A stretch of 54,832 bases of DNA, filler included, from Streblomastix strix (Eukaryota), in the NCBI GenBank assembly GCA_008636045.1. It is 3 parts of 3 records of this genome, joined end to end, with 100 filler letters (N's around TTAATTAATTAA, not from the genome) between each part and the next. Parts side by side here need not be neighbours in the genome. Positions count along the whole stretch, not along the records: positions 36,641 to 54,832 come from SNRW01000630.1; 2 more parts are not named here. One strand, written 5' to 3'. Positions within the stretch are counted from its first letter, which is position 1, and every line of letters begins with the position of its first letter. Positions 23,606-52,619 of this stretch are shown here, in pieces. The translations under genes and the position numbers were made by a program. A model generated the notes under the pieces. That model had not been told where the DNA came from. It was given only the letters and a program-made list of their open reading frames with translations, and ran no database searches.

Positions 23606-23903
23606 CTACTATACGATGGTGTTTTTCCAGTACCTTAACTTTTTCACGATGTTTTGGATCCAACCCTCCACGATTCTTGCCAAATTGGTCATTCTGGACA
23701 ATTTACCCAATTTGTCAACGATTCTAGCATATTTTTATCATAATTTAAACAATTTGTTCAGAATACTGGGAATCTCAACGATTATTTGAAAATGGAAAGT
23801 TGTGGAAAATCAATATTTAATATCAATTATTCTAATAAATATTTACCATTATTTATATATATTGATTAGGATAAATTACTAAGAAACAAATGCCAAAAAC
23901 GCT
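23606..23903 (+). repeat. Left terminal inverted repeat (298 bp)
   Basis: CTACTATACGATGGT...GCCAAAAACGCT is the reverse complement of 31379-31676 with scattered substitutions and no net indel. Confidence 0.95.
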
Positions 23904-23949
23904 GACCGAGCAATAAATTTTATTCAATAATATTAAAAAATATTATTTT

Positions 23950-25226: not shown

Positions 25227-25237
25227 AAAAAAATTGA

Positions 25238-28200
25238 TCACATGTAAAGGTAGTTAGATGCATCAACAGTCATAATCTAAATAGCACATGGGTATGATTA
25301 ACTTTTAGAAATATCACTATTAATTACTATCATTTTATCAACCACACCTGTTAATGCAGACTTAGTTATTTTTACCATGGACATCACACCATTTTTCAAT
25401 TAAATTTAAGTAATTGGAACTGATACATTTGAATTATATATAATAAAATTAATGTAATCATCTTTTGTCAAACCACTATTCTTTTCATTAATTCCCTTCA
25501 TTCTTATTACGTCCTCATCAGTATCCTCATCATCATCATCTTTTTTATTACGAATAGCTGAGTAATATTTATGTGCTAGACAAATGATGCTTTCTCTCTA
25601 TGATTCAATAACTCACCTAAGTAGCTTCTTTTTTTTAGCAATTGTACAAACTTACCAAGGTAGCCACTCTTTATAATGATTATCCCAGAATTCTTGATAC
25701 ATAATTACATGTTTGAATTATTATTTATATCCTTCAATCTATGATCCACTAATACATAGTTACATTGAGTCGGTATCCATACAGCAGAAGTGGACACGAT
25801 TCATATCAATACATTTGTATAGGAAGAAGTAAATGAAGCATAAATACTAGAATTTTGAATTGTCTTATGTGAAGATACTTTCTTATAAGCATTTATGAGC
25901 GGAGAATGAATCTGGATTAATTGATACAAGATTGCGGACATCTCAAATCTTTCGTGAGTTAGTGAAACCTTTATTTAATTATTTTAGATATGTTTATTAT
26001 TTATTGTAGATACCAATCTTATCAAATTTTTCATTATTCTAACCATCAGCTCCATATGAACTATTCAATATATTTTAGAAATAAAGTTATTTAGCTTAAT
26101 TATCCTCTCTCATTGTTTATTAACGTTTCTCAGCCATTACTTCTACGAATGATTTGAATCCGGTATGTTTGGCGAATAATACTATCTCTTCAACATCGTC
26201 GATAACGAAATGACAATAATCTATTTACAGTCATAAGTAATATGAGCTAAATGACATAAACTAACCATGTGTAGATAGAATGGAGGCTAATTTTGTTACA
26301 AATTTATTAATAGATAATCATTATTTTTTCATCTTTTCATAAGTGAATTTTCCAATTGTTTTATCATCAATTTTATAAGTGCGCTTCCTCCAGATTGGTG
26401 GAAAGTTAATGTGTTCGTTAATATGATATTTATCAATGTGTCCCTTAACTTATGCTATGAATAGCTATCCTTTTTCCTCTGAGAATCTATCTTCTGAGTT
26501 AATGATATTCATCATCTCTTTTCGCTTGGTGGCTCCATAATCTTGATCATTTGTTTCGCATATTTTAATGCGTTTTATTACTCTTCCAACCATGTTCATC
26601 TTACCTCCAGTATACAGATTATTATTATTATAAATTCAACAGAAAACACTTGGATATAATGAATTAAAATCAAGATCCAAAATATTTGTTATGATGTAAT
26701 TTAATTCGTAAGCCGTTATAATATTTGTTTCAGGATAATATTTTAATTTATTTATGTGGGTTAATCCTTTTTTATTGTATTGATGAAACACTTAGCTCAA
26801 TCTACCATGGATAGATTCGCGTAAAACCAATAAACTTCTTTATCATCAATTATCATAGGTAGATTCTTAACAATAGCGTACATATACATCTATATCACTA
26901 ATTTAGCCACATCAGCATCCTTATTTGATCTTGTAGAGTTACATAGTTAGCAGGCTAGTTTACAGTTATCTTTAGTGTGAGCAATGGTGTTATCAGATCG
27001 TTCAAGAGTTGGCTTGTTTACATTAGTGAACTTAGCATTACAATTGTAGCATTTATTTGGAATCATCTGATTGAAATAATCTATATCATTAGCAGTTACG
27101 TTATTTGTTGTATCTCTTCCTGCTTTGATATCCTGTTGCAAATACCCTTCAACTTTCTTATTGAATTTTTCTGAATAAAATTTATTTTCTTTATTATCTG
27201 TTTCTATATTCTAATCACTATTAATGTCAAAGTCTTCCTACGCATAATTATACTTAATTGAATTAGCGATTTTAGATAAGGATATCTAAGATAGCATATC
27301 AATACCTTACTACCTACATAAATCTATTAAATTTTTGAATGGAGCAAACATATATACAACATCACGAATATTTTAGTACTTTAGATAGGACCATCTATCC
27401 TTGAAATTACTCCAACCATTAGGTTGAGACAAAGTGAAATCTACAATGTATTTTTAATAATCTTTTTCACTAATATTTTTTCGACTAATTTAATTATAAA
27501 AATCCTTATGTTCAAATGGTTCAGTTGATGATAGGAACTAATTTACATTGTTAGTGTTGAAAAATCCATGAGGAAATTTACCCTTAATTAGTTTGGTTCC
27601 AGTCCAATATTTATGAACGAAATTATCGAGAGTCGTTGGAGATATAAATGTAAGAATATCCTTGAACACTAGCTCAAACTTATAGTTTGAATGTCTAATT
27701 GTTACTTACTTCTGTTATGTTGTTGATACAAGGTAAGAGTTATTTTTAAATATAATTTTAGGATATTAAACTAGATATGGAAAAATGATGTTAAAATCAA
27801 ACTTCTCTGAGTTAAATTTAAAGATTGCAACTTGATGAATCTTTTATTAATGTTTTTATTTTTCATTTTCATTATCAAATTTCATAACAGGTTCACACGC
27901 TAAATTTGCATCATTAACTTCATTCGCTAGCTCTCACATTTGCTCTATGAATTTATTCATGAAATCTTATGTTCGAATATCAATATATTTTGATTATATT
28001 TTATTATTAATTTATGTACCAATAAATATAGTTTGTGGTTTGAGTTATGCGTAGATTTATTAGTCATCTTAATTCTATTCTTCAACTGTTTCTGCTTCAA
28101 TGCAAATGTAATTTTTCGTGGGTTATAGTATGTCGCTAACTCCTTATTCATAATCCTTGGGAAATAGCTTAATCTTACCCGTTGCGAATAGTTTTTGATT

Positions 28201-30306
28201 AGTTTTATTTGATTTGAGATATGGCATAAATGGTTGTGCTAACTTATCAAGTTTTGGGTGTTTCTATTAGTCAGGACCTTTGCATAATTCTAGATGAGTC
28301 TTATAATCTCTACCAAAGTGAGCATTAGCACTGTTGAACAACTTCTGGTTGCACTTCTTACATAAGTATCATCCTACTACGCGATCAATATCTTTAATGA
28401 ACATAGCGTGAACTTATGGATTCTCATCACCTTGAATTGTTAATGGGGCTAGTAAAATATGAGTAGTTACCTACTCTTAGTCAACAATATATTCATTTGT
28501 TTTATTGAATTATTTTTCAGAGTGATCATATTCATAAGTCATTACATTTAGCTTGAAGCATTATTGGAATTTTTCTAGATCCGTATCTTAACTGAATCCT
28601 TCATAATCTTTCAACATTTATTTCTATTATTTGTTTAATCTACTCCCATTTTTATGAACTTTTTCGTGAAATTATAGGAATAGTTCAATAGCATTAGCGA
28701 TACGGGTTTTTGTTTAATTAATTTCAGGATGACGTTAAAATGATGCAGCTATAAACCAGCAGATATTATATTCGCAATCAATGGATCTAGTGTAATCATG
28801 TTCATTAAACCATTATATCTCATGTCTTAATTTAGTTCCAAGTGGTAATTCATAAACAATAATAACAAATGAATAAAGTGCTACTTTTCGAATATTCGAA
28901 TACTAGTGAAGAGGCGACTAATCCTCATGAAACATATCATGAATTCTATCCTTGAACGGTTTTAGCGAAGAGTTATCTCGTATGATTATTGGGTAATTTT
29001 TATGAGAATTTTCTAATGATGGTTTGTAATAATGATAGCTGAAGTCGTTTCTGATTCGCTTTTTGTTATGGGTTGATTAAGTAGTTTACCAGATACTTCC
29101 AAAGTCTGCAGCTATCATATATATTTAATTTTTATGTAATTCATGTAGTTACGCTAGTTTGTCATTGAATTATTAAAGATGAATAAATTTATTAAAATAA
29201 TACATATGATAAGGTTCTTTATTTTAAATATTATTAGCCTATGCAGTTATCTAAGATAACCCATAAAGATCAACCTCATTCTATTTACGGAATCGCTTTC
29301 TTGTTTCAATTAATGTATCATTAAATTTCTTCTAATCATCGGGTTAAAAGTACATAAATGCCTTGAGCTAATCAGCAACATTGGCGTTATATTCGTTAGT
29401 GAATTTGAGATCAGGTTCCTATAATTATTTATTTTTATAAAACACAAGTAATGATTCAGTTCGTTTTGCTTATCTAATCGTGTACCCTTCTTAAGTTAAT
29501 TTATTTTTATTTAATTCTGATAATCTTTCATTTTTAACTCGTTTAACCTGCTTGAATGTATTAATGTGATCTTTAACGAAGTGAGTTATTATTTTTCTTT
29601 ATTTAAATCGTTAATATTATCGCTGAATTTTCCTAGCTGCTTGATTTGGTTATATCAAGTCAAAATTACGTGCAAATACCGCTCTTGTATTGGTTACATT
29701 GTCCTTGCCGATTATATTCAAATCATTGATTCATTATTATTTTATTTAATTAATTTATTATACATATTTATCCTTTAACTCTTGAAGTTATCTCTTTGCA
29801 TCTTTGATTTGTTAACGATTTCTCATTGTCTTCTTTACTGTATTGATGGCTTTAATCACATTGTGCTAGTCACTATCATTATTCAATCGTGTTGATTACT
29901 CCTATAATCTTGTAACTTACTACCTAAACTAGATTTACTTATTAATTTCATCTAATTTCTCAGCAGCTAGTTCCAATTCTTATGTAGCTTTTATTCTTTA
30001 TTATTATAATTATATTAACTCATCTTGTACTTTATCTGTGTCATTAATGGTATCATTATTCTATTCATCATTCTCGACTCTGTCGGGTTTTGCTAATGCA
30101 AACTATTCATTTTTTGTTGCAACTGCTTTGTGAACAAACTCACTAATCTTAGTAATGCTACTCTTTGGTCCATTTTAACCATATGCTTTGATTCTTTGTA
30201 GTAACAGTTATTCAAGTACTGGTTTGGTTGATTTAGGATCATATTGAACTTCAAGTTGATTGAGCTTCACATGAACTTCGGAAATTCGAAAATATTTTCC
30301 AGCCAT
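25238..30306 (-). pseudogene. Protein-primed family B DNA polymerase (pPolB), ~1690 codons, disrupted
   Basis: Exo motifs YICIEAET / FNSEKFD / YLKYQNIRDV; polymerase motifs DLDFNSLYPS, NILNSSYGADG, CMDTDSM; zinc-finger-like CKKC...H...C and an HNH-like insert. TGA at 27934-27936 and 26231-26233, frameshift at ~26825. Confidence 0.93.
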
Positions 30307-30493
30307 TTTTGGACTCGATAAAATTTTGTGTTTATACTTTAAGAATCAATATTGACTTTTATTTGTGTAATGTTTGATTAATGTATCGTACTGTTTGATT
30401 ATATTTTGAATTTTGATTGTTCTACTTTGCTTCTTTAATAATAAATGAGCTCAATTAAATATTGATTTAAATCATTTTTTCTATCATTGAAAT

Positions 30494-31357
30494 ATGATTA
30501 GTGAAACAGAAGAATTAAAACAATTATTATATTAAATTTCTGAATTAAAATCAGCAACTACTGTAAGATATTTTGTGTTGGAGAATTATGATATATTATC
30601 GCAAGTTAGTTCATTCATTCTAAATAAATATCTCACAATCCCTGAATATAAATATACAAGACGTAACAATTATATTGAACTTTATCATATAAAAACTAGT
30701 AAATATATATAATATGAATTACTACCAAAATAAATTGAACAGATAAAATAAGTTGAACAAACTGATTCTATTGTACCAGATTCTGCTTCAAATCGAGATT
30801 TTAATATTTAAACAAGTGATCATAATGCCGATTATGCTTCATAAAAATCTTTATTAATAAATTCACAAAAGAATGAAAAAGCTTTATCGTATGAGATTAC
30901 CGATACTGACTTTGCGAGTATTGCTGAATCAATATTGGATGAATAGGTGAAAGTTGATCCATAAATTTTAGATACTGTGATAAATTATGTGATATTATCA
31001 TTGATTGGAAAATAATATAATTAATTGAATGAGTTAATGTAATAATAGATAATAGATATTGAGCAACTTGACTAAGAAAAAAGCTAATATTTTGAACAAT
31101 TAACACAACAGCTACCATAGACACAATACGAATATATCAATCAAAGGATCCTTAATATCGAGCGCGGTATTGTTGGTTTATGGTTAAAAAATATTGGTAA
31201 ATTAATAAATAAACTATTTACTAAAATAAAAGATAAATAGCGAAAGAATTAAATTCCATAGAATGGTTCATAAATTGATGCAAGTGATCTTTAAATATTA
31301 TCTGTGCGAAATAAATTCTATGATATTCCAGTTGTGTAATTTAAGCGTCGTGGCTGA
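30494..31357 (+). CDS. Hypothetical protein of the TIR element (287 aa; probably ended originally at TGA 31376-31378, adjacent to the TIR)
   Basis: Open with TAR=Gln from MISETEELKQLLYQISELKSATTVRYFVLENYDILSQVSSFILNKYLTIPEYKYTRR to ...FKRRG*; a second TGA seven codons later abuts the right TIR. Confidence 0.7.
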
Positions 31358-31378
31358 TTTCAATATTTTTGGAATTGA

Positions 31379-31676
31379 AGCGCTTTTGGCAATTATTTCT
31401 TAGAAATTTATCCTAATCAATATATATAAATAATGGTAAATATTTGTTAGAATAGTTGATATTAAATATTGATTTTCCACAACTTTCCATTTTCAAATAA
31501 TCGTTGAGATTCCCAGTATTCTGAACAAATTGTTTAAATTATGATAAAAATATGCTAGAATCGTTGATAAATTGGGTAAATTGTCCAGAATGACCAATTT
31601 GGCAAGAATCGTGGAGGGTTGGATCCAAAACATCGTGAAAAAGTTAAGGTACTGGAAAAGTACCATCGTATAGTAG
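31379..31676 (-). repeat. Right terminal inverted repeat (298 bp)
   Basis: AGCGCTTTTGGC...ACCATCGTATAGTAG, reverse complement of 23606-23903. Confidence 0.95.
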
Positions 31677-31681
31677 AATAT

Positions 31682-32358
31682 TAATCTATAATAATTTCTA
31701 TTGCAATAGATATGTTATCCTCCATAAGCAGTCGTAACTAAACCTACATTTGGTGAAAGTGAATCAATTAGATTTTATCTTATTTTATCGATTTCTTCAA
31801 TTGATTTATCCTTATGAAGATCTATATCAACTAGTCATAGATTATCTTCGCCCATTAATGAGAAATCAATTAATTTACCAGTTATTTATTACTTACTACC
31901 TTCTTATTATCCTATTTTTGTATAGCTCACTGTATTAATCAGTGTATTTTTATCGTATTCAATTAATGTTTCTGAATCTTCTTCTTACGTATATAATTCC
32001 ACTAACGATTACATTACTTCTTAAAATATATTACTTTCTCTATTTTTTTCATATAAATATATTAAATAATACATTTCTTCTTATTTCTTTTTCGTTCCTC
32101 CATAATAATTACGTAATTCATTGATACATTACTCACATTTCTCTTTAACAATCTATCTGAATCTCAATTTTTTAATCTGTTTATTTTATCTGATCATTTG
32201 TCTGATCATTAATATATTCATTTGTTTATTCAATAATCATTTGTTCAATGATAGCTTTTGCTTTATCATCTGTTTTTCGATTTGTATGAATGTTTACGCT
32301 TAGGTCCTTTTTCAACTCTAATAAATTTAACGTCTGTTTGTTGAATTGATTTTGTCAT
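31682..32358 (-). pseudogene. N-terminal part of the split viral primase (AEP/Prim-Pol-like) gene
   Basis: LVDIDLH (DxD motif I) and VGLVTTAYGGQHIYCNRNYYRL (degenerate T-x-x-GG-x-H motif II) are AEP/Prim-Pol signatures; the frame stops exactly at the TIR element and resumes at 23605. Confidence 0.8.
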
Positions 32359-36640: not shown

Positions 36641-36965
36641 TTGTTGCTTACATTTTTGACGTCCCAGAGTGTTAAATTTAATTGAGTATAGAGGATGAAG
36701 GATGTTGTGGTAGATTCTGCAACGACTCAACTTAAACATTAAATGAGATATTGGTTGGGAACGTAAATATATTAAAGTTGAACGTCGAAAAAGTAAATTT
36801 ATTGAGGGACAGCTATAAAATATGTTTATAAAAAATAAGAAAAATAACAAGCATTTTAGATTTGGGAGAGATAACAAGGAAAATTATTAGTACAGTCTCA
36901 AAAGGATTAATGACTGTGTTAAATAAAATTTGAAACTGTTAATTAATTACTTTTATTTTTATAAA

Positions 36966-38606
36966 ATGGACGGAGATTTACATATGCTTGATGTTGTTTT
37001 AAATCATGATTAGGCACTTTATGGATCAAGTAAGTATAACACCATTGGCTTAATTAACGAAGTAAAAAATATTGAAAATTTAATAAATATAATTAATGAA
37101 GCACCAAAACCTTATAGTCGTGAAGAAATTGATGAAATATTAGATAAAAAATTAAATATATCTGACTAAATTGATGCATACACTAAATAAGAAGAAGATG
37201 TGTTGCAGTTATTGAAAGATGATAAATCAGAGCTCATTGATGCATATTCGAACACTGAAACCGATGCCTTACTCGACGATAAATTAAATATTTCCGATTA
37301 AATCGATGCATACAATAAAACTGAAGCCGAAGTCCTACTCGATGATAAATTAAATATATCCGATTAAATTGATGCATATTCGAAGATTGAAGCCGATGCC
37401 CTAATCGATGACAAATTAAATATATCTGAATAAATTGATGCTTACACTAAATAGGAGGATTATGCTTTGCTATTAATAAAGGCTTATAAAACAGAATTTG
37501 CGGATTATGTTGATTTAGCTTCTACTCAGACGATAACAGGCCAAAAATAATTCGGAATAATTAATGTATCAAGCATATCGAAATAGAATAAAAATGATGC
37601 TTCTATTCTTCTTGCTGGCGGTGGTGATATGCTAGTAAGTTCATAAGTATCATAGCCATAACTATAAGAAGTTCGAGATATTGCATCAGGTAAATCAAAA
37701 GGATATGTTTTCTCAAATTTAGATGATTTGAATACTTGGATGGAAGATTAGGAAAACGTCGCAAAATTAGCAATTGGAGATAATTTATATATAATTGATA
37801 AATAAATCATGGGTTATTGGTGGGATGGCTCTAATCTTCGAGCATTAGAAACAGAACTGCAAGATATGAGCAACATCATGAACATTCTTGGAGCTGCTAC
37901 AGGAGGAGGCAATGCAATAACAGATTTATAATTTGATGGAAATACACTAATACCTGCGAAAAATAGTTCATTTATAACGACTAACTATGATGAAACTATT
38001 ACAGGTTAAAAGACATTTAATACAACTATCCACTCTGTCGGAATATCTGTATAAAATTACGATAATAATTCTGTTGTATGTGCTGGTGGTGGTGTTAAGG
38101 CCATACAGGACATAAATGCAAGCGTTGATTTTTCAAATTATTATAATAAATCATAAACATTCATAAACTGAAATTTATTAAAAATTAAATCTAAAATTAA
38201 ACGTTAGCGATTAAATTGATGCAAACACTAAGACATAAGATGATGCTCTGCTCTTGTTGAAGGCTGATAAAACATAATTGATTGATGCATACACTAAAGG
38301 CTAAGCCGATAATTTGCTCAACAATAAAGCCAATTCAGGTGTTTTATATACAAAAGGAGAAGATGATGCGTTGCTGCTGTTGAAGGATGATAAAACATAA
38401 TTGATTGATTCATACCCAAAAGGAGAAGCCGATAATCTGCTCATTAATAAAGTTAATTCAGGAGTTTCATATACAAAAGGAGAGGATGATGCTCTGCTGT
38501 TATTGAAGGCTGATAAAACTACAACTTATACCAAAACAGAAACTGAATATTTGATATCATAAATTGAAGTTGGTGATGTTGATTTAAGTGGTTATATGAC
38601 ATTATG
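36966..38606 (+). pseudogene. Fiber-like protein with phage tail-fiber-type YTKxE repeats
   Basis: ~21-aa repeats IDAY(T/S/N)KxExDALLDDKLNISDQ and 19/21-aa YTKGEDDALLLLKADK units, plus QTITGQKQF, ETITGQKTF and LLAGGG motifs; frameshift at ~38160 and an apparent junction at ~38605. Confidence 0.7.
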
Positions 38607-39580
38607 GACACGTGGAATGTTAATGGAAAAGGCAAATTTGAAGCGTAATCGTATGCTTATGAATTAGTGAATAAATAAACAGCTTTAATCGAAACGGGTG
38701 TGTAAGGGCTAAATAGAACTAATAATTTGAACAGTGAAATAAAATTAGTGGATGAATTAGCGATATATAAAGCAAATAGAGCGGCATATTTTATTAAAGA
38801 TGGTCCATTTATCATATATAGCTTTGGAGCAAAATTGTCACAATTAGGCGCCAATTATGAAGCATAATAGACTGTATATAAATTATTTTCGACAATTAGC
38901 AAAAAAGTACTACCGCCTAATACGAAATATATGCCTATTCATGTCGAACAACAGGAATTTTCTGCTTTGTTTTTGTTCAAGGATATGTATGATAAATCAT
39001 CAGCTGTATAGGTGGACGTCAGCGGATAATTAAATATGCTAGATTGTGAATTTCAAGGAACATATATTCTTGATAACTATACGAACAGCACATGCACCAA
39101 CGAGTCAGTACCTGAAGATGTAGAATCTCACATCGATGAAGTAATAATAAAACATGAAAAATAATTAAGTTCATCGACACAACCACAATATACGATAACA
39201 AATGTCTAAAATTAGTTTATGATAAATGATTTTTTCCCTTCATCAGCATTTAATACATTCTATATCGTTGATGATGGCACTTGTAGGATATGTGTATTCA
39301 ATTTATATTTCGAATCAAAAGGTTTAGATGGGAGAACGTAAGAAGTTGGTCGTATTGCTAATTATGTAATACACCGCAGATGGTAAAAGTTTGGGCTTCC
39401 CTGCGGCTGTAAATAGAACAAAGGGCGAAAGATAAAATAACTTTCCTGTGAGTTATTTTACTGTAAATTCAGAATTTAAAATGCTATATTTTTAATTATC
39501 AGAACCATAAGAGTCAATACCAGCGGATTCAGCTGATGTTACAAATATTGTGCCAGTGGAATGTATTACTTGTGAAAAAC
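38606..39580 (+). pseudogene. Beta-rich hypothetical viral protein fragment (possible fiber head or minor structural protein)
   Basis: Long frame DTWNVNGKGKFEAQSYAYELV...AYFIKDGPFIIYSFGAKL...; no start codon at the junction; frameshift at ~39375. Confidence 0.4.
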
Positions 39581-39604
39581 GTTTATTTATTGAATGTTTA
39601 ATAA

Positions 39605-39793
39605 TGATTAATAAATTGGACTGCGTTGATTGGACCGAGTCAAAACATCGATGAATTTATTGAATATGGCTCGTAGAAGTGGATTAGATTATGAATGACT
39701 TGATTGGACCAAGTGTGGGACAGGATCGAGTCAAAATTGTTATAAAAAACTGTGGCTAACTGGACAACTGGCCAATTTATTAATGAAAAATAA
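39605..39793 (+). repeat. Intergenic repeat R1 (+)
   Basis: ...GGATCGAGTCAAAA-TTGTTAT-AAAAAACTGTGGCTAACTGGACAACTGGCCAA...GAAAAATAA; aligns over ~185 bp with the reverse complement of R4. Confidence 0.85.
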
Positions 39794-39857
39794 ATCGATT
39801 AATTATTCAAATCCAAAACAATACATATTTAAATTTACTTTTATTATAAATAAACTT

Positions 39858-40173
39858 ATGGCTGTAGGCATATTCTCAAAAATAAAGCAGTTGGTTTAAA
39901 AAGTAGAGAAGGGTCTTTAATGGGCTAATGATAATGTTCATAAACTGTTCATAAAACGATTTGCTTAACCAATACTTGGAGCATTGGGCCCTGTCGGCTA
40001 AACAATAGGCAAATGTTTAGATGTTGCTAGTTCATTTCTTGATTATAGTTATGGTGCAGATAAAAATGGTTAATTTAGGTAAAGATTTTGAAACGTTGAG
40101 AAATGACGAATATTTAAGATAAAAATTACCAATTGATATACAGAGTCGAAGAATATAATTATTGAACCAATGA
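39858..40173 (+). pseudogene. Small protein with an N-terminal amphipathic helix (adenovirus protein VI-like)
   Basis: MAVGIFSKIKQLVQKVEKGLQWANDNVHKLFIKRFAQPILGALGPVGQTIGKCLDVASSFL; TGA at 40089-40091, with a shifted frame continuing to TGA 40171-40173. Confidence 0.5.
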
Positions 40174-40204
40174 AAAACATAAGCATTCACGTTTGATATT
40201 ATAA

Positions 40205-40293
40205 TTATTTTTCTCAATTATTGTTTAGTTGGCCAGTTGGCCACAGCTTTTTGTGGTAGCTTTTGACTCGGTCCAGTCCATCGACTCGGTCCA
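40205..40293 (-). repeat. Intergenic repeat R2 (-), inverted partner of R3
   Basis: 83/89 identical to the reverse complement of 43752-43840. Confidence 0.95.
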
Positions 40294-40358
40294 TAAATAT
40301 TCAATAAATGATTTTTATTTCATTGAGTATTTATTTAACTGTTTCATTTTTTTATTGA

Positions 40359-42080
40359 ATGTAAAAGATGAATAGATTCTTAATGAAAGCCACACATTTA
40401 CAACAAGCAGGGACCATTGAAGAAACAATATTAGATAATGCCGTTGTTCCATTCACTAATGACGGAGAACATCATTATTCAATTAAGGAAATCAAACCAG
40501 AATCTTAAATGCCAGCGTTATTTGATAAGGAGATTATTATAAGTTTATCAGATACTGACCACGACATCATATAGATATAAAATTCGTTCTTGTCAGTAGT
40601 GCTGACAGCTAATATCTAACTCGATGATAAATTTGATAAAATTGACGAATCATATAAAGACGGATTGGTTCTATTCGTAGGTCTCAAATCAGGTTCAAAT
40701 CTTATTAGAGAATATACAATCTACCATAGAGGTAAAACCATCGATGGAAGCCTATAGAATGACGCAACAACTGAATCATTCATTTATAACACAATGAAGC
40801 CAAAAAGTGAGAAAAATAATAGAAAACATATCCATTCCCTTTATGAGAATATTCATAATTTTGATACATCAGCGTGTGGAACATATGTAAGTATGCAAGA
40901 GATTGAAGAGCTAACAGGAAATCAAACAGCGGTTCCATATACAATTCCAATACGTTTCAGAGTCAGTATTCCACTTGATGACATCTTGATATTCTCTGCC
41001 TTCACTGATTATCCTAATGGCCTATTTGGCGATTTAAAAATAAAATTCAAAATTAATCCTCATACATTCGTTTTCTATTAAGTGAATCCAATTATTTCAA
41101 TGGCTAAATATTATATTATGAATAATGATGAATTATTGGGTAGTAGCCAGTAGAAGCTAATGGATATTGATTTGATGCTCAGAAATTGGAGCCTGACATT
41201 CTAATATACCAAATAATTTACATAATTGGGATGCACTGCTAACTTGATTACAAGACTACATGCGGAACCACTAACTGAGTCAGGACTGAAAAATTTAGTA
41301 TGCGACATCAAACCCGTTACCATAAGCATAAAAAATTATGTCATAACAGAGGTCACGGCTAATATGGCAGGTTATAAAGCTACTGATGCATACCTTAATC
41401 GAGTCCGTTAATTCTACAGCTAACGTCCATTTGTTGTCCCTGCTCAGCGTGTGGAAGTATGGCCATTTCCAACATCTGCTACTTTACCGGGAATACGAAC
41501 ATCTTAAGATATTCCTCTATCTCACGTAACTGACTTATGTCTTCTATTTCTTAAAGATGCAAGAGCTACGACTTGCTTTGAAAATATTTGCTATCAGAAC
41601 ATGCAAGTAACCACCTGCGGACGTAATTTCCCAGATATGCCTATGAATACGCTTGACCAATAATTCTTCTAATTATAACTCAATGCGTCAAATCTTGACA
41701 TATTATTCGAAGCTACTGATGAATTTGAAGATGCATTGACAACACCAAGAAATACCGCAACCTAAAGATTGAACCCTAATACAGAATTAACAAGCTTTTT
41801 GAAAACTCTTTAATATGAAAGGAACAGCAACGGAGCACTGACTTTTGACAGACTAGACACTCAGAACCAAAATACTTCTGTCGAACTCAGAGGAGCACCA
41901 ATTTATTAAGGAGCTACAGATTCATACTATAACGTAGATACAAGTGGAAAGAGACCGCCACCTCTTATTTTATGCACAGTTCATGATACGTTTTGGTTAT
42001 TTTCACCTGCAGCGGGTAGAAGTTGCATATATGATACTAACCATTCATTTGATGAGGTGATTGGATCACTAATTGCTTGA
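40359..42080 (+). CDS. Probable major capsid protein (double jelly-roll) of a metamonad Polinton-like virus, intact 573 aa
   Basis: Uninterrupted frame with TAR=Gln (MQKMNRFLMKATH...LFVGLKSGSNLIREYTIYH...FRVSIPLDDILIFSAFTDYPNGLFGDLKIKFKIN...FDEVIGSLIA*); beta-strand-rich, size and context typical of an MCP. The fold assignment is inference. Confidence 0.7.
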
Positions 42081-42193
42081 AATAATTGAACATTTTTATT
42101 TTTTTATTTGTATATATAACTAACACCTAAGCATTAATAATATGGTTAATAAAATAAATCATTAGTTATTTTTTTTATTTTATTTCGTAATAA

Positions 42194-43353
42194 ATGGCTT
42201 CAAATATGATATCTACATAAAACTTAAAATATTACACTATAACATAAAACGATGGAGTTGTTATCGGAGAAATCGGATAGAATGGAGTTGGTTTTGCATT
42301 ACCTTATGCGTTTGTAAATTCTGATAATTAAAGAAAAATAATATTCTGCTAATGTCATTGTTCAAACTTAGGCGCCAACGAATACATTTCTGTTCATAGT
42401 TCAATGGTTCAAGAAGAATTATATTTCGATTAATTTGTTGTTTATTGTAATGAAAAACGATTTTATAAGCCTTTCATCTAATACAACCACAACAGATATT
42501 TATATATATGGTTCTGTTAAAATTAAGAATTAATGGACATAAATTAATAATTAAAATTTGTTCTTGACTTGATGCTTGAATATTGAAAACGTTGTCGAGG
42601 CAAAAACGTATTAGCCCATTGATGCATATATTTTTATTCAAATCATGGGTCCAATTCGTCGGCTGAAATTCAGCCAACGAAAAATAAGATAAAAATACTC
42701 GTGCTTTTGAGTCCGCATCAAAAAGGGCGGACCAATTATTTTATCAAATTAGTTAAGGATTTGATAACGAATATAAAGGTTATTACATTCATCCTATTTT
42801 GATTAATTATGTTGCAATATGGATAAATCCGAAATATGCCGTATATGTTCGTAAAATTATGGATTTATTTGATGAAAGAATACATTTGGAACATTAATTA
42901 GATGATTCCACAAGTATGGCAGAATAAGCTTCAATAACATTTGATAGAGATATGGAAGAAATGAAAGCAAAAAATAACGAATTAAAGGAATAAATTTAAT
43001 TGAAAGATAAAGAAAATAAATAATTGGAAACGCGCGCTGTTCCTGATGGTTATTAAACAGATTATATATTGGCTGTTTTGGTAGAAGATGATGATGTGAA
43101 CGATAACGCTATCCTTAATATCATTCGTAGAAATAAATACTGCACGAGTAAAAAATCAATGAGAGAATTAAAGGATAGTCAATTATTCTATGAAAAAATA
43201 CCTATAAGTATGTCGAAAAATTATGAAATAAAAGATTAGTTATATGAAATGTTTGGAGATTAAATAAAGTTTCATAAGTGCAGATACATCTTTAAACCCG
43301 AACTAATGGATGACGTTATTGATTTTATAAAGCATAAGATGGAACACAAATGA
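42194..43353 (+). pseudogene. KilA-N domain protein, disrupted
   Basis: KGYYIHPILINYVAIWINPKYAVYVRKIMD is the KilA-N C-terminal signature, followed by a coiled coil; several in-frame TGA and frameshifts in the 5' half. Confidence 0.85.
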
Positions 43354-43387
43354 ACGACATTATTTATTTTATTTTTGCAGAAATAAA

Positions 43388-43738
43388 ATGGAAAAAATAT
43401 TATTTGATAACAGAAAACACAATTAATTTACTTCAAAATTATAAATAGAATTAGATTAATAAGATAACGAGGAGGGGATCGAAGGTTAGATTAAATGACA
43501 TAAATATTTTGAGAACTTAAAGGATTTCAAATAATTTATTTCCCAAAATTAATAATAACTATCTAAACTATCAATGTAAAAATTAAACAAATTATATAAA
43601 TTGGAAGGCTATAAGTTATCAAAAATAGAAGGTCAAGTATGTATAAGAACTTGCGCAAAAGATTAACTGAATAAGATTGAGTATAAATTAGACTAGTTTT
43701 TGGATGTTCTGAACCATTTGGTTTAAGCGCTGAAATGA
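43388..43738 (+). pseudogene. Small hypothetical viral protein (116 codons, one internal TGA)
   Basis: MEKILFDNRK...QIK*HKYFENLKDFKQFISQNQQQLSKLSMQKLNKLYKLEGYKLSKIEGQVCIRTC...LVQALK*. Confidence 0.55.
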
Positions 43739-43751
43739 ATGACTTTTTGAC

Positions 43752-43840
43752 TGGACCGAGTCGATGGACTGGATTGAGTCAAAAGCTACCACTAAAAGCT
43801 GTGGCCAACTGGCCAACTGGCCAATAATTGAGAAAAATAA
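43752..43840 (+). repeat. Intergenic repeat R3 (+), inverted partner of R2
   Basis: TGGACCGAGTCGATGGACTGGATTGAGTCAAAA-GCTACCAC-TAAAAGCTGT-GGCCAACT-GGCCAACT-GGCCAAT-AATTGAGAAAAATAA. Confidence 0.95.
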
Positions 43841-43863
43841 ATATTTGCTTTTTTCAAATGTTT

Positions 43864-44650
43864 TCAAATTATTTTAACAACTGTTCCACTCATTTCATAT
43901 TATACCACTAATGCATATTACTTAGTTAGTCGAATATATTCATATCATATTGTTTGTTTATCTGATGGTATCGAAGTTTAATAAAAAAATTAATTAAATT
44001 TTAATCCGTTAAATGAACCGAAAAACCGTAATGAATCAAGATTTGATTTAATCGCAGCATCTAAACCAATGATGTCCTATAAACAAAGAAAGTATGTTAT
44101 TCTGGGCTATCTGTTCTTAAATAATTTTTTAAACAGTGGATTATTTTTAATTTTAAATATACTCATTGCATCGTCAAATAAAACAATTGTATGGGGAAAT
44201 TTGACGTCAAAATTACCTTCTCCACTAGCACCAAGTACATTGGTTAATATATCATCTTTTGATTCTTCAGTTAGTTCTTTTTATAATTATTTTTCTTATA
44301 TTTCATCATGCGCTTATTTGCATTCAATCAAATCATTCAGCACTTAATCCGCTTCGGCATATGGAATAATTTTAGTCGGAATTATAATCAAATCCTTCAC
44401 CTTTTTATAAGTGGTGTCATTATTTGAATCGTTGATATATAAACAGTGTATAACAGTGTTTTTTTAATTAACTTAATTTTATTAACTCTTTGAAGACATT
44501 ATACGTCTTGCCACTGCCACGCTAACTTATCAATAAATTTACAGAGTTATATGTAAAATTTAACTGTTTATGAACAATTGTTTAAATTTCGTGCTTATTC
44601 ACTTTTATTTCTTTTAATATATTATCAACTTTTTATGGTAAACTCGCCAT
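43864..44650 (-). pseudogene. A32/FtsK-HerA-like genome packaging ATPase, disrupted
   Basis: Walker A LLISQRGSGKT, Walker B TIVLFDDA, motif C KNRQPRITYFLCLQD; frameshift at ~44438 and an in-frame TGA at ~43946. Confidence 0.88.
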
Positions 44651-44690
44651 TTTTATTATATAAAACTTTTTTTTATCGATAAGAAATAGA

Positions 44691-45773
44691 ATGTCAGAAA
44701 TACTCGATTTAAAATAAATTAAAAATGAAGCAAGAGAAGAATTTGAAGCGGAAAAAGGCTAAGGCTCAGGTGGTAGTGGTGCAGGTGGGATGATGGACAT
44801 TGATAAAATGGAGGATGATTATAATTATTATGAATCACAAGTTATAAGATAGGACGGAATGAAATCACGAGCAAAACCGTTCGGTAGGCTGCCGTTCTAT
44901 CCTAGTATGATTCAAAGAACAAGAAAGCATGCAGGCCCATAATTTAGATAAGAGGCTGGGGACGTTCTTGCTACACTCGTTGGTTATTTGAATAGAGATA
45001 TAAAGAAAATTAATAGGTTATCGTCTGCCGTTAGTGCTCAAAAATATATAAATGATAAGCATTTAGACAAACGATTTAGAGTATTGGAATAAGATTTGGA
45101 TGATAATCAAGCCACTCCTGATAATGTGGTTGTATTTGATAAGAAAAAGAACGCAATTTATTCAGTCGATGGATATACAACAGCAGTAGGATTTGGCGAC
45201 CCAGAGCATTTACATAAAAGAAATTGGAAGAAATAATATTATTCAGATGTTGATGATTTAGAACGAGCAGCATTGGCAGCCAAATTAAAAGCATCTGGTA
45301 TAAAAGGCTGCCCTTACATGAAATGGCTATCAATGACTAAGCCGCATGTAGTAAGAGCGATAAAGGATTATAATTTCAGAGCATTCACCCTCAATGCCAA
45401 AAAATTCATAGATGCTAATGGAGGCGAAAAATTGCCAATGGCAACCAAACAACAAATAATGGGATCAGCTTGGAATTCAGTTCTTATTTCTCCTGCTGTA
45501 GAAATATTAGAAAGATAAGACGGAAAAATAGACATATATAACAGAAGCAATAAAGTAAATATATAAAAAGGAGATTACGAATTTTTGCCACTTGCTAAAA
45601 GATTGTATAAAAAAGAATTGGCTGCCGCTATTACTCAACTATATTAAGCTGAAGATGTCGATGCAAGGATTTAGTAAGCACTTGGATAAGCCATGCAATA
45701 TTATGGTCAAATGCTAACATAAAGATAGCAATAAATAGGAGGTTTAGATTTAGCAAAATATAAGTTCTAATGA
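44691..45773 (+). CDS. Intact 360-aa hypothetical viral protein (possible core/structural protein)
   Basis: Open with TAR=Gln: MSEILDLKQIKNEAREEFEAEKGQGSGGSGAGGMMDID...EQDLDDNQATPDNVVVFD...IYSVDGY...KYKFQ*; divergent from the ATPase across 40 bp. Confidence 0.75.
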
Positions 45774-45783
45774 TTTAGTATAT

Positions 45784-45968
45784 TTATTTTTTCATGTTTC
45801 GACTATTTGGCGGATCGACTGGCTTTTTTGATGAAAGTTTTTGACTCAATCCACCCAATCCACCCAATCCACCAAAAAGTCATTCATTATCTAGTCCATT
45901 TCTTAGTGCCAATTTCATAAAATTCTTCGAGTTTCTAACTCAATCCACTCAATAATTCAATTTATTAA
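45784..45968 (-). repeat. Intergenic repeat R4 (-), inverted partner of R5
   Basis: Minus strand: AATGAATGACTTTTT(GGTGGATTG)x3-AGTCAAAAACTTTCATCAAAAAA-GCCAGTCGATCCGCCAA; 23-bp exact core (45825-45847) shared with R5. Confidence 0.9.
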
Positions 45969-45999
45969 TGTAATTATTTTTTATTTTTATTTTTAATTA

Positions 46000-48900
46000 A
46001 TGGCAGATAAATAGGGGTAAGACTCATAAAGACGACGCACGCCTCCAATTGTGCCTCAAATTGTGCCTCTGTTAAAGACTCTAGAATTTCCAGAACTATT
46101 ACCATTAAATTTACCACTTAATTTACCGCTTAAATAAACATAATAATAAATGATTTAAATGTAAGACTATATAGGATAGGCGCAAGCACGCGATTATTAG
46201 CCAGTGCCATAATTATAAACAGAATAATAATAATAGGTTTTAATTTAGGACTATATTACGTAAATGTAAGCAAGTAATTATTAACTATTGCCTGAATTAT
46301 AAATGGAACAACGACAATAATAATTGATATAAATGCAGAATTATATTACGTAAATGTAAGCACGGAATTATTAACCAGCCCCTTCGGGGCCAGCCGAAGG
46401 CTCATCTGAATTATCACATGAACTGCAACCCGAACATGGTGAAGCTCACGAAGTCGTTAGACTCAGGGAGGATTATCAATTGGATTTAAGGCCTAAAAAA
46501 TTAACTTCAATTGTTATAAGAGAATTATTGTATTTATATGACCCTTAAATATAATAGAAAATAAATATTAATGAATTGAGGTCATAATTTTCATAAATTT
46601 TAGATAAAATCGGTTTAAATCACGGTAGAAACAATAGAGATATAGTTCGAAATGCAATATTTTAATCCGAACCATTTGCAAGACGCATCAAATAAGACAT
46701 TCAGTAAGGCCTTCAAAACGAATAAATTATCGGTGATGCTTACGCTAAATAATTTATGCAAGAATAGAATAACAAATAGCAAATGAACGCTTAAGACGAA
46801 TAGAGCCAACAGCACAATTAATAATTGGAGCAAGTGATGGAAGATTAGCTAGAGAGACATGCAAATTTATTAAAAGAAATTAAAGAATAAAAAATAAACC
46901 TTAAATAAAATTAGAATGAAGATGTATTTAAAAATGTTAAAGATGAAATAAAATAATATAATGAAGAAAATGAGGGCAAGATTTTTAGGCCAATTGATGC
47001 TCTTAACGTCTTATAGAGCACGATTATGTTATGTGAGCCACAACTCGAATAAGAATATGAAAGAAGAATTTAATTTGAGCGAAAACATTTATAAAATTAA
47101 CACGTAAAATATGACCCATTTTGTGTTCATACTATCAGCCCAACAAAAGAATTTTACAAAAATGATTTAAAAAAGATTGAAGATATCGATGCTTATTTAG
47201 ATGAAATATATTATAAAGAATAAAAATTAGCATTCAAAATTGTATTTGATTTTGGGGTGATTATTGAACGAGTTGATGGCTAAGAAAATGATTAATTAAT
47301 AACATATAAAATTAATCATCCCCTTGAAGCTAGAACAGAGATGAGATCTCCAACTACCATACGCACGCACTTAGATTTGGAGGATTATAAAAGATACATT
47401 AGAAACCACATAATTCAAATGCAAGAGAAAACCATCATGGACACCAAAGAGAAAGTAGTAGGTGTATTTTCATTCATGATTTAGGTGTATCGTCTTCCAC
47501 ATGCAGGCGCTGGGTCGTCGAACAATACCATCATTAAAGAAGCATATTATGAGGCGAGAGATTCGATATATTGATACTGAGAAAAATAATTAAAATTTAT
47601 GTTTCTTTCTTGCATATTCATTTATTACAAAGCCAGATATTAAGGCAGATGGTTCAGTGGTGGCCAAGCGTTATAAGGAGCATTCACGTATTGCAGAAGC
47701 TAAACGATTATTTTAAAGAAACTATGGCAAGAAAATAGATGATAATTACTACGGATTCAATTTTGCAACAGAAGCTGATTAATTTATTTAGAATGAAAAT
47801 TTAAATTTTAATGTATTCGCTTATAAAGATACAACGACAGAAACTGGCAGCTCTTCGAGCAGTTATTATCATTGGAAGCAATACAGAAGAAACAAACAGA
47901 ATGAATAAATTAAAGAATTTAATATACTTTTAATAACCGACACAATCAACGAACTACAAACAGCTCACGTTTTTTATATAAATGATGTTGAGGCACTAAC
48001 TGGTTTAAAATATTGTCCTATCTGTGGTGTGCAGGCTTATAAGACCAGAAATTCAAATTTGTAGTCAAAACTAAAAAGGCATATATAAAAATGTTAAAAA
48101 AATGGAGAAAAGATAATAACGAAAGTATATTTAGAAAAATTTCCAAGGCCATACGTTCCACATAAATTGAATAATGTTAGCTATAAGTATCTTTTGGCAC
48201 ATGGTCGAGAGGATGAATTTAAGCCTACTAAAAATTATATAACATATGATATTGAAACCGTTGAAAGAATATTTAATGAAAAATTCGGGAATAATTCAAC
48301 ACAAATTTCAATTCTTGAACCCCTTTAGATTGCAAGCACAATAAAAATAAAAAAGAAAGTCATTAATGGTTCAAATAATGATTCCGTTGATTAAATTTAT
48401 TCGATTTATTTTGACATTCGAACCCCTACCTTTATTAATGTATGGATTAAATAATTGTTTATGGAAACCAGAAAAGTTATTGATTCAATCAAGTATGAAG
48501 ATGAGACGATACCATAGCATTATGAGGTTCCAGTAATTGGCTTCAATTCTTCAAAATTTGATGTTGCATTGATTTTTAAAAATTTATAGAGTGATGAGTG
48601 GCAAATCATTAAATATCTTGGTAGTGGTTCAAGCGCTAAATAAATCATTGTTAAGCATAACATATCAGGAATCAAATTGAGATTCATCGATGCGATGATT
48701 TATTCTACAAAAATGGAATTAAAATAATTCACTAAAGACTTCACACCTAAAGCGTCAGCAACAACGGAAAAATCAGCAATTCCAACCAAATTAAAATTTC
48801 CATATGAATTCATCAACTTAGATAATTATATTTAAGATCTCGATAAATCAGAACCATTTCTCTAAGATGCATTCAGAAACTCAATTAAAAAATAAAAACA

Positions 48901-51074
48901 TCGGCACTGTTAAGTATCAAAATTATTTGGCTGTTGCTTAATAATTTTCGAACAGATGAGATTATCTTCGACACTACAACCTTGAAGATACCCGCTTAAT
49001 GATTGAGCCCTTTGATTACTTAATTGATATGTTCTTCAATTATAAAATTGACATGTAGCAGTTTATGTCGATGTCTGCATGCGCCAATACAATCAAATAT
49101 GCTCTTGCTTATTTAAACTTCAAACTTGATTAAGATTATACGCCAAAAGATGATTATGCTTCGTTTATTTTGACATAAAATTATTGGAACATTAAAGTTT
49201 AAAATTATTTTGATTAGGATAAAAAAAGAAATAGAGATACAAGCAACAACATCAAGGACTCAGATTGTGCGTTCTACAGAAAATTATTTCTATCAACAGG
49301 ATGCCATATTTGTATAGCACGATTCACAAGCAAAAATCCACCAACATTGGATAGAATCAACAACGATAGGTACTATTCTGCAGATAACGTAAAACCGTGC
49401 TGCTTATTCTGTAATAAATTTAAGTCAAATAAAGATGAAAATTTAACAAGATTAGTAATACAATTAAAAAATTTCTGTCTTTTGAAGTCGCTACCTATGA
49501 CAATAACCGATGAAGAAGTTTATTTAATTTTACGTTCTGATATCACTGGCGGACTATCATAAGTCATGCATCGCTATAATGTTGCAGGTGTAACTAAAAT
49601 AAATTAATTAAAATTTATTAACGGAAAAGTCATTAGTTAAGACACAGATTATACAATGACCCATCTTTTGACTCTAGATTTCAATTGTTAAAATCCCAGC
49701 GTTATGAGCTCAGAACCGCATAAGTTCATTAAATATATGCGAAGCTCACGAAGTGCAGGAGGTAAATTATACATGGCAGGATAAATATTGGATAAAATAA
49801 CTGAAAAATAAACAGCTAGAAATTTAATTTATAATCCAAATCGATTTAATGACATTGAAGGTATGCCGCTATTTATCGCAGTTGTTAAAGGACACTTCGA
49901 CGAATAACAAATAAATGATTTTATTAATTTTCTTCCGATACTGAGAAACATTGATATAATGACTGATTAAAACACGTTAGGTTCATACATGAATAATCTG
50001 CTGCTGAAAAATAATATGCATAATAACAAAATTGAATGAAAATTAACAAATTTATCATCGACGCATAGGTAGTTCATGTCATTTAATAATTATTATTTGT
50101 GGCTTCTCATTGATGATTTTCATTTCATTATTGACGATAATTAATGTCTTATAACGTTCTCGAAGCACGATAGATTCAATCCATTTGTTAACGAATTTAT
50201 GAGTCAAAGAATTTAGGCAATAAATGAATAAAATGATGAAAAAAAATAATTCTATAAATAAGCTATGAACTCAAACTATGGAACTGATGGGATGAATTAA
50301 GAAAAATATTCACAAACGAAATTGTTGAGCTCTGATAGGACTTGGTTGTCTCATCTCTAAGGTTCATTCGTTAATGACTAACAAATAACAGATGATTTAT
50401 TTGCTGTGTAATTTAATGCTGAGAGCTGCAACTGCAACACCTGCCTCCATTCTGCTTATTTCGTGTTAGATAATAGTATATATTGATATATAAATTTTAT
50501 TTATAATTTTATGTATAAAGCATTCGATATGAACAGGATGCACTATATTTGTGGTGATACTGATTCGATGACATGGGCCATCAGCGGCAACCCTGATGCA
50601 GAAGAAGGATATAGGTAGAAATTTAAATATGTCATAAAATACTAAAATTTTTTCGATGAAAATTATCCTCTGTTCTTCGGCTAATATAAACAACTATTGG
50701 GAGTCAGTTATGAGGCAGAAGGAACGGCTTGCATTGCTTTAGCTCCAAAAATTCATTATATTTATAATCCTCTGCCTAATGAGAATGAAAAGGATTATTA
50801 TTATTGTTTGAGAGGAATAATATAAAAATAAAATGTTCAGTTGAACGATGAAGCATTTAAATAATCATTAAATGGAGAATAAATTTAAGCTCAAAATATT
50901 ATTCTTGGTCAAAGAAATAAAAAAATGTCAAAAATTTAAATAAATAAAGTTGGTTTATCATCGATTCATAATAAAATGGTTGTTCTTGAAAATTAATGTT
51001 GTGCGCCATTCTTATACATTAACGGGTAGCAATTGAGTTCAGATAATTACATAATTATTAATGATGAGCACTGA
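46000..51074 (+). pseudogene. Protein-primed family B DNA polymerase (pPolB), ~1690 codons, disrupted
   Basis: Exo YITYDIET / IGFNSSKFD / HYNLEDT; polymerase LDFNCQNPS (degenerate motif A), KQAMNSNYGTDG, ICGDTDSM; zinc finger YCPICG...H...C; HNH-like CHIC...TLDRINN...NVKPCCLFCN. Frameshifts at ~47535 and ~48895, TGA at 48957 and 50037. Confidence 0.93.
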
Positions 51075-51125
51075 TGATAGACACTAATAATAAGCATGAA
51101 TAGGAGCGATAAATTGAAGTAGTTT

Positions 51126-51220
51126 GTGAATGGCTTTTGACTGCACCGAGTGCATCGAGTGCATCGAGTCAAAAACTTTCATCAAAAACTGCTGCCAGCC
51201 TGCCATTCTGCCAGATTATT
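51126..51220 (+). repeat. Intergenic repeat R5 (+), inverted partner of R4
   Basis: GAATGGCTTTTGAC(TGCAYCGAG)x3-TCAAAAACTTTCATCAAAAA-CTGC followed by three TGCCA units. Confidence 0.9.
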
Positions 51221-51279
51221 ATTTGAATCATTAACATCTCCATTAATGCTTTTAATTGTTTTATTTTTGCAAGAAATAA

Positions 51280-51663
51280 ATGCAAAACGAAAATAAATTG
51301 TATGAGGAGATACTTCGGACCTTCGCTCGTGATAAATATTAAAGAGAAGAATATGAATTTGAAGTATAATAAGATATCGATGATAAAGCATTTAAAGTTC
51401 ATTATAAAATGACTCTATCAGAGTTTATAAAAAATATCTTTAAAATTGCAAAGAAAAAATATGTCGATGTTATTGCCGAGAAAGCAGATGAAATAATTAT
51501 TGGAAAGCGAACAGTGGCAGATTGGTATTATTATTATATTTCAGTTTAATCGTAGTATGAACCATCAAAATAAAAAAATAAACAGAAAAATAAATCTAAG
51601 AAACTGAAGAATGGCATTAATAAGAAGAAGAAAAACATTCCTAAAGAAAAGAAGAACAATTGA
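51280..51663 (+). pseudogene. N-terminal fragment of an integrase-like ORF
   Basis: TLSEFIKNIFKIAKKK...KADEIIIGKRTVADWYYYYISVQ resembles LSNFITQLKIFKNK...NIEKVIIGEKSITQWYEIFVQ at the N-terminus of the integrase at 23950; no DDE core follows. Confidence 0.55.
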
Positions 51664-52619
51664 ATATTCAATCATTATGTTTCAATTCAAATCAATGAAT
51701 AAAATATATTTTTTGAATTTATAATGTCTAATAAATTTATTGTATTTAATGAAATGGTTAATACAAATGACAATATTCAAATTAGTTTGAATGATATGTA
51801 ATGATTAAAATAAATCAATTAAAAAATAAATAAATATTATTAAATACAAATAAAATAAACTTCATCTTCTTAATCTGCATTCTTTCTCGAGTATAACAAA
51901 TCCATCTCATTCAATAATGGCTTTGTTGACTAATTCATATCAAATGAAGATGAAATAATTATCAAATATTATTTATATTAAACATTTATATAATTCATAC
52001 CTTAGTTCTGTATTGGATTTCTATGTATTAATTTGAATATGATTATTTATCAGAGTCAATCATCAATGTTTTCAAATGATTGTTTATCTCCTTTAGAATT
52101 AATATATTTGTTATTTCGTTAGAATGGAAGAGTTGATAAATGCAAATTATTGTTGTATCTTTCATTCAATTATCTATATTTTATTGAAGTAGAGAATACA
52201 ATGTTTTATTATAATTATATGCTTACATTGCATTGAAATGTGGATGTGGTTGTTTATTGGATGTTGTTCTTGTTCTTAATAAGAAGAATAATGTTTATTG
52301 ATTTGATTATGTTGGTTATAATCTAAAAGAATAAGAAGGTTATATTAAATGTATTAATCCAGATCTACCATTCATGATATAGATTTGTAATCTGATCTCA
52401 TTACTTTCTTGTATTGCATTGATTTCATTTATAACAGAATATCAAAATGATGATTAATCAAGTTATCTGTTTGAAAAGAACTAAATAATTACAAAAATTA
52501 TTCTAGGAGAGATTATTCAGAGTCAAAATTATTCATCTTTCTATCTATTAATGCTAAATAAAGAATAAGAAATTAATTCTAAAATAATTAGAATCGGATG
52601 ATATTCTTATATCAACAAT

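Follow-up and report, generated by a model that had tools for sequence, protein, structure and literature searches.

To our knowledge, very little has been described of how Polinton-like viruses signal in cis, apart from their terminal repeats and some short promoter motifs. Here we report a family of internal, two-armed repeat elements in such a virus of the protist Streblomastix strix, which lives in termite guts. The virus lies in a stretch of 54,832 nucleotides from assembly GCA_008636045.1 (hereafter the window, i.e. the whole stretch analysed), which consists of three contigs joined by N-linkers. It occupies the last of these from the contig edge at 36641, so its left end is missing. The family is real and lies, as a preliminary description of this DNA had proposed, at the boundaries between gene blocks, where its position is conserved, and a family of cis-elements with exchanged halves is apparently undescribed.

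Endogenous Polinton-like viruses are known from this host (Bellas et al. 2023, PMC10120064; this and the other papers below are cited for the accessible parts of their text). The Metamonada MCP group reported there shares with the virus of the window its host, code-6 genes, a double jelly-roll (DJR) major capsid protein (MCP), a protein-primed family B DNA polymerase (pPolB) and many integrated copies, cluster membership being compared by description only. In that text inverted repeats are treated only as terminal and segments go unmentioned, whereas the repeats reported here are internal. Endogenous mavirus-like elements (EMALEs) are likewise endogenous pPolB/DJR viruses with conserved intergenic promoter motifs, and their genes are syntenic within a type (PMC8547959). 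Those motifs are short and lie upstream of genes, whereas the present elements are about 90 bp long, two-armed and alternating in orientation, with one placed between two 3' ends. A third parallel comes from T4-like phages, in which PeSL cassettes are repeated promoter-terminator composites with a stem-loop that act as exchange points for homologous recombination (PMC4122927, PMC2839356). The cassettes belong to bacterial phages and flank accessory genes (PMC4122927), while here core blocks are flanked and the regulatory role is putative.

The element pattern is matched five times in the window, against a mean of 0.00 and a maximum of 0 over 100 dinucleotide shuffles; the places and orientations are those first described. 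In an element, about 90 bp long, roughly three 9-nt units form the left arm and roughly three 8-nt units the right arm; between the arms stand two A-tracts that enclose a spacer of 7-9 nt. The core GAGTC starts at +39728 (R1), -40269 (R2), +43776 (R3), -45847 (R4) and +51166 (R5). Beyond these five full copies there are two half copies, with cores at +39637 and -45941. A real element is indeed present where R1 had been said to start, but position 39605 belongs to a sixth, half copy (the left arm with core +39637). The copies are as follows.

39607..39690, plus strand: half copy R0, which has the left arm and the first of the A-tracts (core 39637), together with the inner flank common to R4
39691..39780, plus strand: R1, spacer 39737-39743, with a predicted left-arm stem-loop
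40205..40293, minus strand: R2, spacer 40253-40260, 83/89 identical to R3
43737..43840, plus strand: R3, spacer 43785-43793, with an 8-bp inverted repeat bracketing the left arm
45784..45890, minus strand: R4, spacer 45830-45837, whose right arm imperfectly repeats the distal left arm in inverted orientation
45877..45969, minus strand: inner flank of R4 with a half copy (core 45941), homologous to 39607-39701
51126..51216, plus strand: R5, spacer 51176-51183, with a 23-bp core identical to that of R4

The elements delimit the following blocks: fibre genes, the small open reading frame (ORF) A, the MCP block, a P-loop ATPase with ORF X, pPolB, and ORF Y. Their orientation strictly alternates along the virus, and each of them follows immediately on the 3' end of a gene (F3, A, W and ATPase, X, pPolB); the ATPase/X gap, the sole divergent 5'/5' gap, holds none. 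R4 and R5 enclose only pPolB (46000-51074, frameshifted), as claimed previously. For R2 and R3, the contents originally listed (MCP, KilA-N and a small ORF) are present, but there are four ORFs in all, with a 130-aa ORF to be added and the small one broken.

Previous observations on likeness between elements are reproduced, i.e. R2 and R3 are identical at 83/89 (and 86/93) positions and the longest exact string common to R4 and R5 is their 23-bp core. Likeness between R4 and R5 is poor outside this core: 29/45 in the left arms and 14/36 in the right arms, the lowest value of any pair for that arm. The spacers are as first given, except that the one in R3 carries an extra T; the R1 spacer looks like a degenerate form of the R4/R5 class. 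R1 had been assigned a partner beyond the contig, but R1 and R4 share a 105-nt inner flank (z 11.4, 0/300 shuffles; the other 9 pairs have z <=2.5), so the closest long relative of R1 is on the contig, in inverted orientation. The left arms of R1, R3 and R5 are closed by a short inverted repeat, with a predicted stem-loop that is strong only in R3 (z -5.0 on one strand and -4.4 on the other). Rfam has no match at E 0.5 within 39400-46100.

Other copies of the virus, seen through gene-model peptides plus one DNA locus (L121), reveal exchange between elements. An element occupies the site after ORF A in 8 other copies, and 7 other gene models read through it, 6 of them across the spacer. The R2 spacer of the window occurs at this site in 0/6, whereas five models (P0009, P0048, P0119, P0220, P0308) and probably P0012 have a spacer of the R4/R5 class, with third codon positions that are uncertain because the spacers are back-inferred from peptides. 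The proposal that spacer type predicts the enclosed module is not borne out. The left arm before MCP is R4-like in P0009 (9/10 residues) and P0048 (8/10), R5-like in P0119 (8/10), of another type in P0220, and a hybrid of R2 and R4 types in L121, whose MCP region is 92% identical. Between A and MCP, P0383 carries the R5 left arm plus the R5 inner flank (87% over 23 residues). The right arm before MCP stays R2-like wherever it is read, while left arms and spacers vary, with four left-arm types at one position among copies and three in the window. Since R4- and R5-type left arms stand before MCP in other copies, halves have been exchanged between positions, and on this point the suspicion that elements swap sequence was right. 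One crossover in the spacer would leave the R5 arm with pPolB; the presence of this arm and its flank before MCP therefore calls for patch exchange or lineage-wide homogenization.

In L121 (1780-1830), homology to the window ends inside the left arm before MCP and gives way to non-viral, intron-like DNA with a short repeat. The element motif has no match in seven distant relatives (L122-L128; about 40% MCP identity, 1.7-2.9 kb). Two standard-code relatives with about 40% MCP identity, L123 (401-820) and L126 (162-566, minus), carry, upstream of MCP but on the opposite strand, a small ORF that by eye looks like A; an extra 209-aa ORF is inserted there in L123, and L124 has a 215-nt ORF not in L125.

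Sequencing contigs were also aligned to 36700-50400 (R1-R4; contigs only, 80% likeness), and every one of the 30 bins has coverage in 4 runs (3 samples). Loose ends occur behind 45829 (4 contigs in run X2 and 3 in run X3), where the R4 right arm is joined to a left arm and spacer unlike its own, as well as before 43794 (2 contigs in X3), with an R4/R5-class spacer; both sets start exactly at the border of spacer and A-tract. Two joints, each in a single contig, connect the ORF A flank with the R4 outer flank (40177 to 45783 and 40191 to 45788), with short sides of 23 and 27 letters. Strand changes are found in 0/15 among the joints listed (434 further ones lie outside this set). Loose ends and joints fit copy-to-copy variation of spacers and arms and crossovers at the border alike.

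We favour, with moderate confidence, the view that these are position-conserved boundary elements, likely transcriptional, that evolve by conversion between elements within a co-linear endogenous virus. A sequence-specific protein would bind the tandem units around the A-rich core, and the elements would serve as regulatory boundary sites between gene blocks, at which transcription ends and/or starts, with a function that is transcriptional rather than replicative. Elements would pair and trade sequence by gene conversion while gene order stays unchanged, and the R2/R3 likeness and R4/R5 core identity of the window may go back to recent patches of conversion or to mosaic lineages rather than to a spacer code.

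Several observations weigh against this view. Gaps with 3' ends but free of elements (F1/F3, MCP/130-aa ORF, 130-aa ORF/KilA-N, and after Y) indicate that the element is not a per-gene terminator, and genes meet it from both sides, so that an orientation-independent mechanism is needed. A plain regulatory motif would not lead one to expect strict alternation or the near-perfect inverted pair R2/R3. Folding z values are weak for R5 (-1.6, -1.5), for the minus strand of R1 (-1.3) and for R2 (-2.0, -2.2), and the evidence from other copies consists of peptides with predictor-chosen splice sites, not DNA.

Exchange could also arise if the elements were linkers for homologous recombination only, i.e. 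divergent lineages swap whole blocks in a fixed order and the element has its own job elsewhere (packaging, chromatin or replication). The variety of left arms at one position would agree with this, as would EMALE02, a reported mosaic (PMC8547959). We regard it as improbable: in P0009 and L121 the left arms change while the flanks to either side are conserved, a picture suggestive of patches and not of block swaps. Alternatively, the elements could be a miniature inverted-repeat transposable element (MITE), functionless remnants of a small transposon in intergenic gaps. They are indeed small, dispersed and partly palindromic, but the 5 full and 2 half copies all lie inside the virus, with none in the other 36 kb of the window, where copies in non-viral DNA had been named as the mark of a MITE. 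The occupied site after ORF A in 8 other copies also argues against it, as does the element itself, in which no terminal repeats are seen, and we hold this explanation to be very improbable.

The resident is a decayed endogenous Polinton-like virus of S. strix with code-6 genes for pPolB, KilA-N, a frameshifted P-loop ATPase and a DJR MCP. Under code 1 the window has two ORFs >=100 aa; under code 6, long ORFs emerge. The genes are as follows.

36822..38670, plus strand: F1, repeat-rich ORF pieces, putatively fibre-like (a label from the preliminary description), no Pfam match at 0.001
38604..39536, plus strand: ORF F3, no family assigned; the window is without gene F2, which precedes F3 in other copies
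39858..40091, plus strand: ORF A, small, lying between R1 and R2; by eye it looks amphipathic, its function being putative
40359..42080, plus strand: MCP, double jelly-roll by predicted structure
42194..42586, plus strand: 130-aa ORF, no family assigned
42667..43353, plus strand: KilA-N domain ORF (E 6.7e-10), 5' part broken
43388..43740, plus strand: small ORF W, with an in-frame stop
43945..44650, minus strand: P-loop ATPase, frameshifted, Walker A and B in translation, putative packaging role, no Pfam match
44691..45773, plus strand: ORF X, 360 aa, no Pfam or PDB-sequence match
46000..51074, plus strand: pPolB, five pieces, frameshifted, Pfam DNA_pol_B_2
51280..51663, plus strand: ORF Y, after R5

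Of the features typical of Polinton-like viruses, a DJR MCP is present, and so is a pPolB (PF03175, E 3.8e-7; gene in five pieces), the alternative being a primase-helicase. For the A32/FtsK-like packaging ATPase there is a candidate whose Walker A and B motifs are visible in translation, with no Pfam match. Neither an integrase (rve or tyrosine recombinase) nor terminal inverted repeats are found in 36641-52500, where the contig edge cuts the left end. The MCP ORF at 40359 (573 aa) has 177 homologues, all from S. strix among the 120 matches listed. Its fold, modelled from a 72-sequence alignment, has a predicted local distance difference test score (pLDDT) of 91.1, compared with 36.8 from 31 close sequences, and Foldseek matches it to iridovirus, Sputnik and PBCV-1 (E about 1e-13) and to the mavirus MCP (2e-11).

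The end of F1 and gene F2 are absent from the window at 38560-38610, and both are present in P0305, P0307, P0310 and P0383. Within pPolB, 48999-50039 is a Cys-rich insert with two CxxC pairs and no Pfam match, which we take, by motif, to be endonuclease-like. It recurs in the pPolB (26797-27885) of a second, separate element at 22721-31817, which has 298-nt inverted repeats (23606-23903 and 31379-31676, 97%), with one ORF starting within each repeat and pointing outward. This second element holds an rve integrase (24230-24994, PF00665, E 1.2e-5) and a broken pPolB that is 27-38% identical to the one studied here; no MCP is seen in it and the five-element motif is absent.

Gene order in sister copies was read from those predicted gene models that fuse adjacent viral ORFs of one orientation (among 402 proteins; partners recognized by tblastn). 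In 33/33 fused models with a recognizable viral partner, A (24), F3 (7) or F1 (2) stands before MCP on the same strand; 25 of these models are named S. strix, and the window's own (P0300, P0311) are excluded. The 33 do not include seven models whose N-terminal extensions lack a tblastn hit, namely P0049, P0068 (by eye like A), P0154 (F2), P0348 (host-like) and the unassigned P0038, P0129 and P0350; an ATPase match is found in 0/7. Single models show MCP followed by the 130-aa ORF, by KilA-N, or by ATPase-antisense sequence. Were the block between R2 and R3 inverted, the ATPase would stand upstream of MCP, co-oriented with it and about as far away; the ATPase is upstream in 0/33 and no protein among the 402 joins the two, which speaks against a flipped MCP block. 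An inverted share of more than about 9% is excluded (P = 0.05), provided that the inverted arrangement is equally detectable. The test reports on the MCP block; inversions at R4/R5 and R1/R4 would escape it. A search with the N-terminal piece of pPolB reveals no fused partner among 533 candidates, and no A-pPolB fusion exists among 17 longer proteins carrying A.

These data bear on the notion that the elements are site-specific recombination sites whose matching spacers allow cassettes to be inverted or swapped. In the pdif (pXerC/D) modules of Acinetobacter plasmids, oppositely oriented two-armed sites likewise surround modules as sister pairs, and hybrid sites occur (PMC9947245). The alternation of two-armed sites around a central spacer, the pairwise match of spacers in the window, the loose ends that begin at 45829 and 43794, and the two joints between ORF A and R4 flanks all recall such a system. 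The pdif pairs invert through host XerC/D, whereas here no inversion of the MCP block is seen, the arms are tandem arrays, and no recombinase is found. Spacers do not track modules, the joints listed show no strand change, and the lox/FRT-like arms once proposed are not seen, i.e. on inversion about the spacer 1-4 of 13 positions match across elements, and a gapped inverted match between right arm and distal left arm (17/22, 0/1000 shuffles) is significant in R4 alone of the 5. The recombinase that the preliminary description suggested looking for is absent from 96 stop-to-stop frames >=90 aa in 36641-52500, where Pfam matches only pPolB and KilA-N; this negative is not final, given the unassigned ORFs X, Y, W and Z and a search that took in neither the left end of the virus nor the host genome. 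The recombination-site notion is thus largely refuted for the MCP block, and overall we consider it decidedly improbable.

Separate integration of segments fares no better, as the order fibre-A-MCP is co-linear across copies whose best MCP alignments span 40-92% identity (31 listed). The interpretation in terms of matched spacers and segments fails for the MCP block.

A different possibility is that the elements are internal origins or processing sites, at which a co-linear provirus releases or amplifies the blocks between them as sub-genomic linear or circular molecules. Iteron-like units next to A-tracts resemble origins. R2 and R3 act like terminal repeats of the capsid block (86/93), R1 and R4 have about 190 nt in common in inverted orientation, and the viral sequence of L121 stops inside a left arm. 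Three tandem hints point the same way. P0309, on a 2745-bp contig, has A and then F2-F3, the sole exception to the order, and could be one turn of a circle; the MCP models P0318 and P0376 each occur twice, identical, on one contig, with locus tags 2 and 5 apart, and could reflect a tandem sub-genomic unit, an inverted duplication or an amplification chimera. These hints are peptide-level and fit amplification chimeras or assembly duplicates equally, the arms of R4 and R5 are not terminal-repeat-like (29/45, 14/36), and order is co-linear in all 33 informative models. Bidnaviruses and the Drosophila Vesanto virus are likewise pPolB-related and have related inverted repeats around units of 3-6 kb (PMC8363768), but those repeats are the ends of separate ssDNA segments, whereas here they are internal to a co-linear integrated genome with a DJR capsid. 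We see release at internal origins as unlikely, if the least improbable of the alternatives. A broader version, in which the provirus uses alternating two-armed sites to release or amplify capsid, polymerase and fibre blocks, or in which a pdif-like module system acts on the other blocks, is improbable as well.

The viral contig collection has no relative of MCP or of pPolB, and the genome contig collection none for the MCP query. The element pattern occurs at >=120 loci in viral contigs (one match each in the best 80 of 120) and as 74 single matches in genome contigs, from prokaryote genomes. These matches were rejected as chance, since, when compared with the elements and their flanks, the best of these loci align over <=41 bases around the core. 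No description of internal inverted repeats in Polinton-like viruses of S. strix was met in the literature searched, which left most subscription papers and supplements outside.

A block-boundary element of about 90 bp with mobile halves is a concrete target for work on the expression and processing of integrated viral genomes, and the hundreds of copies in S. strix make the question testable from public DNA. If it is true that sub-genomic molecules end at the elements, this would have consequences for ideas on how segmented pPolB viruses arose, and a virus that releases its blocks in this way would then be a missing link between these and monopartite Polintons.

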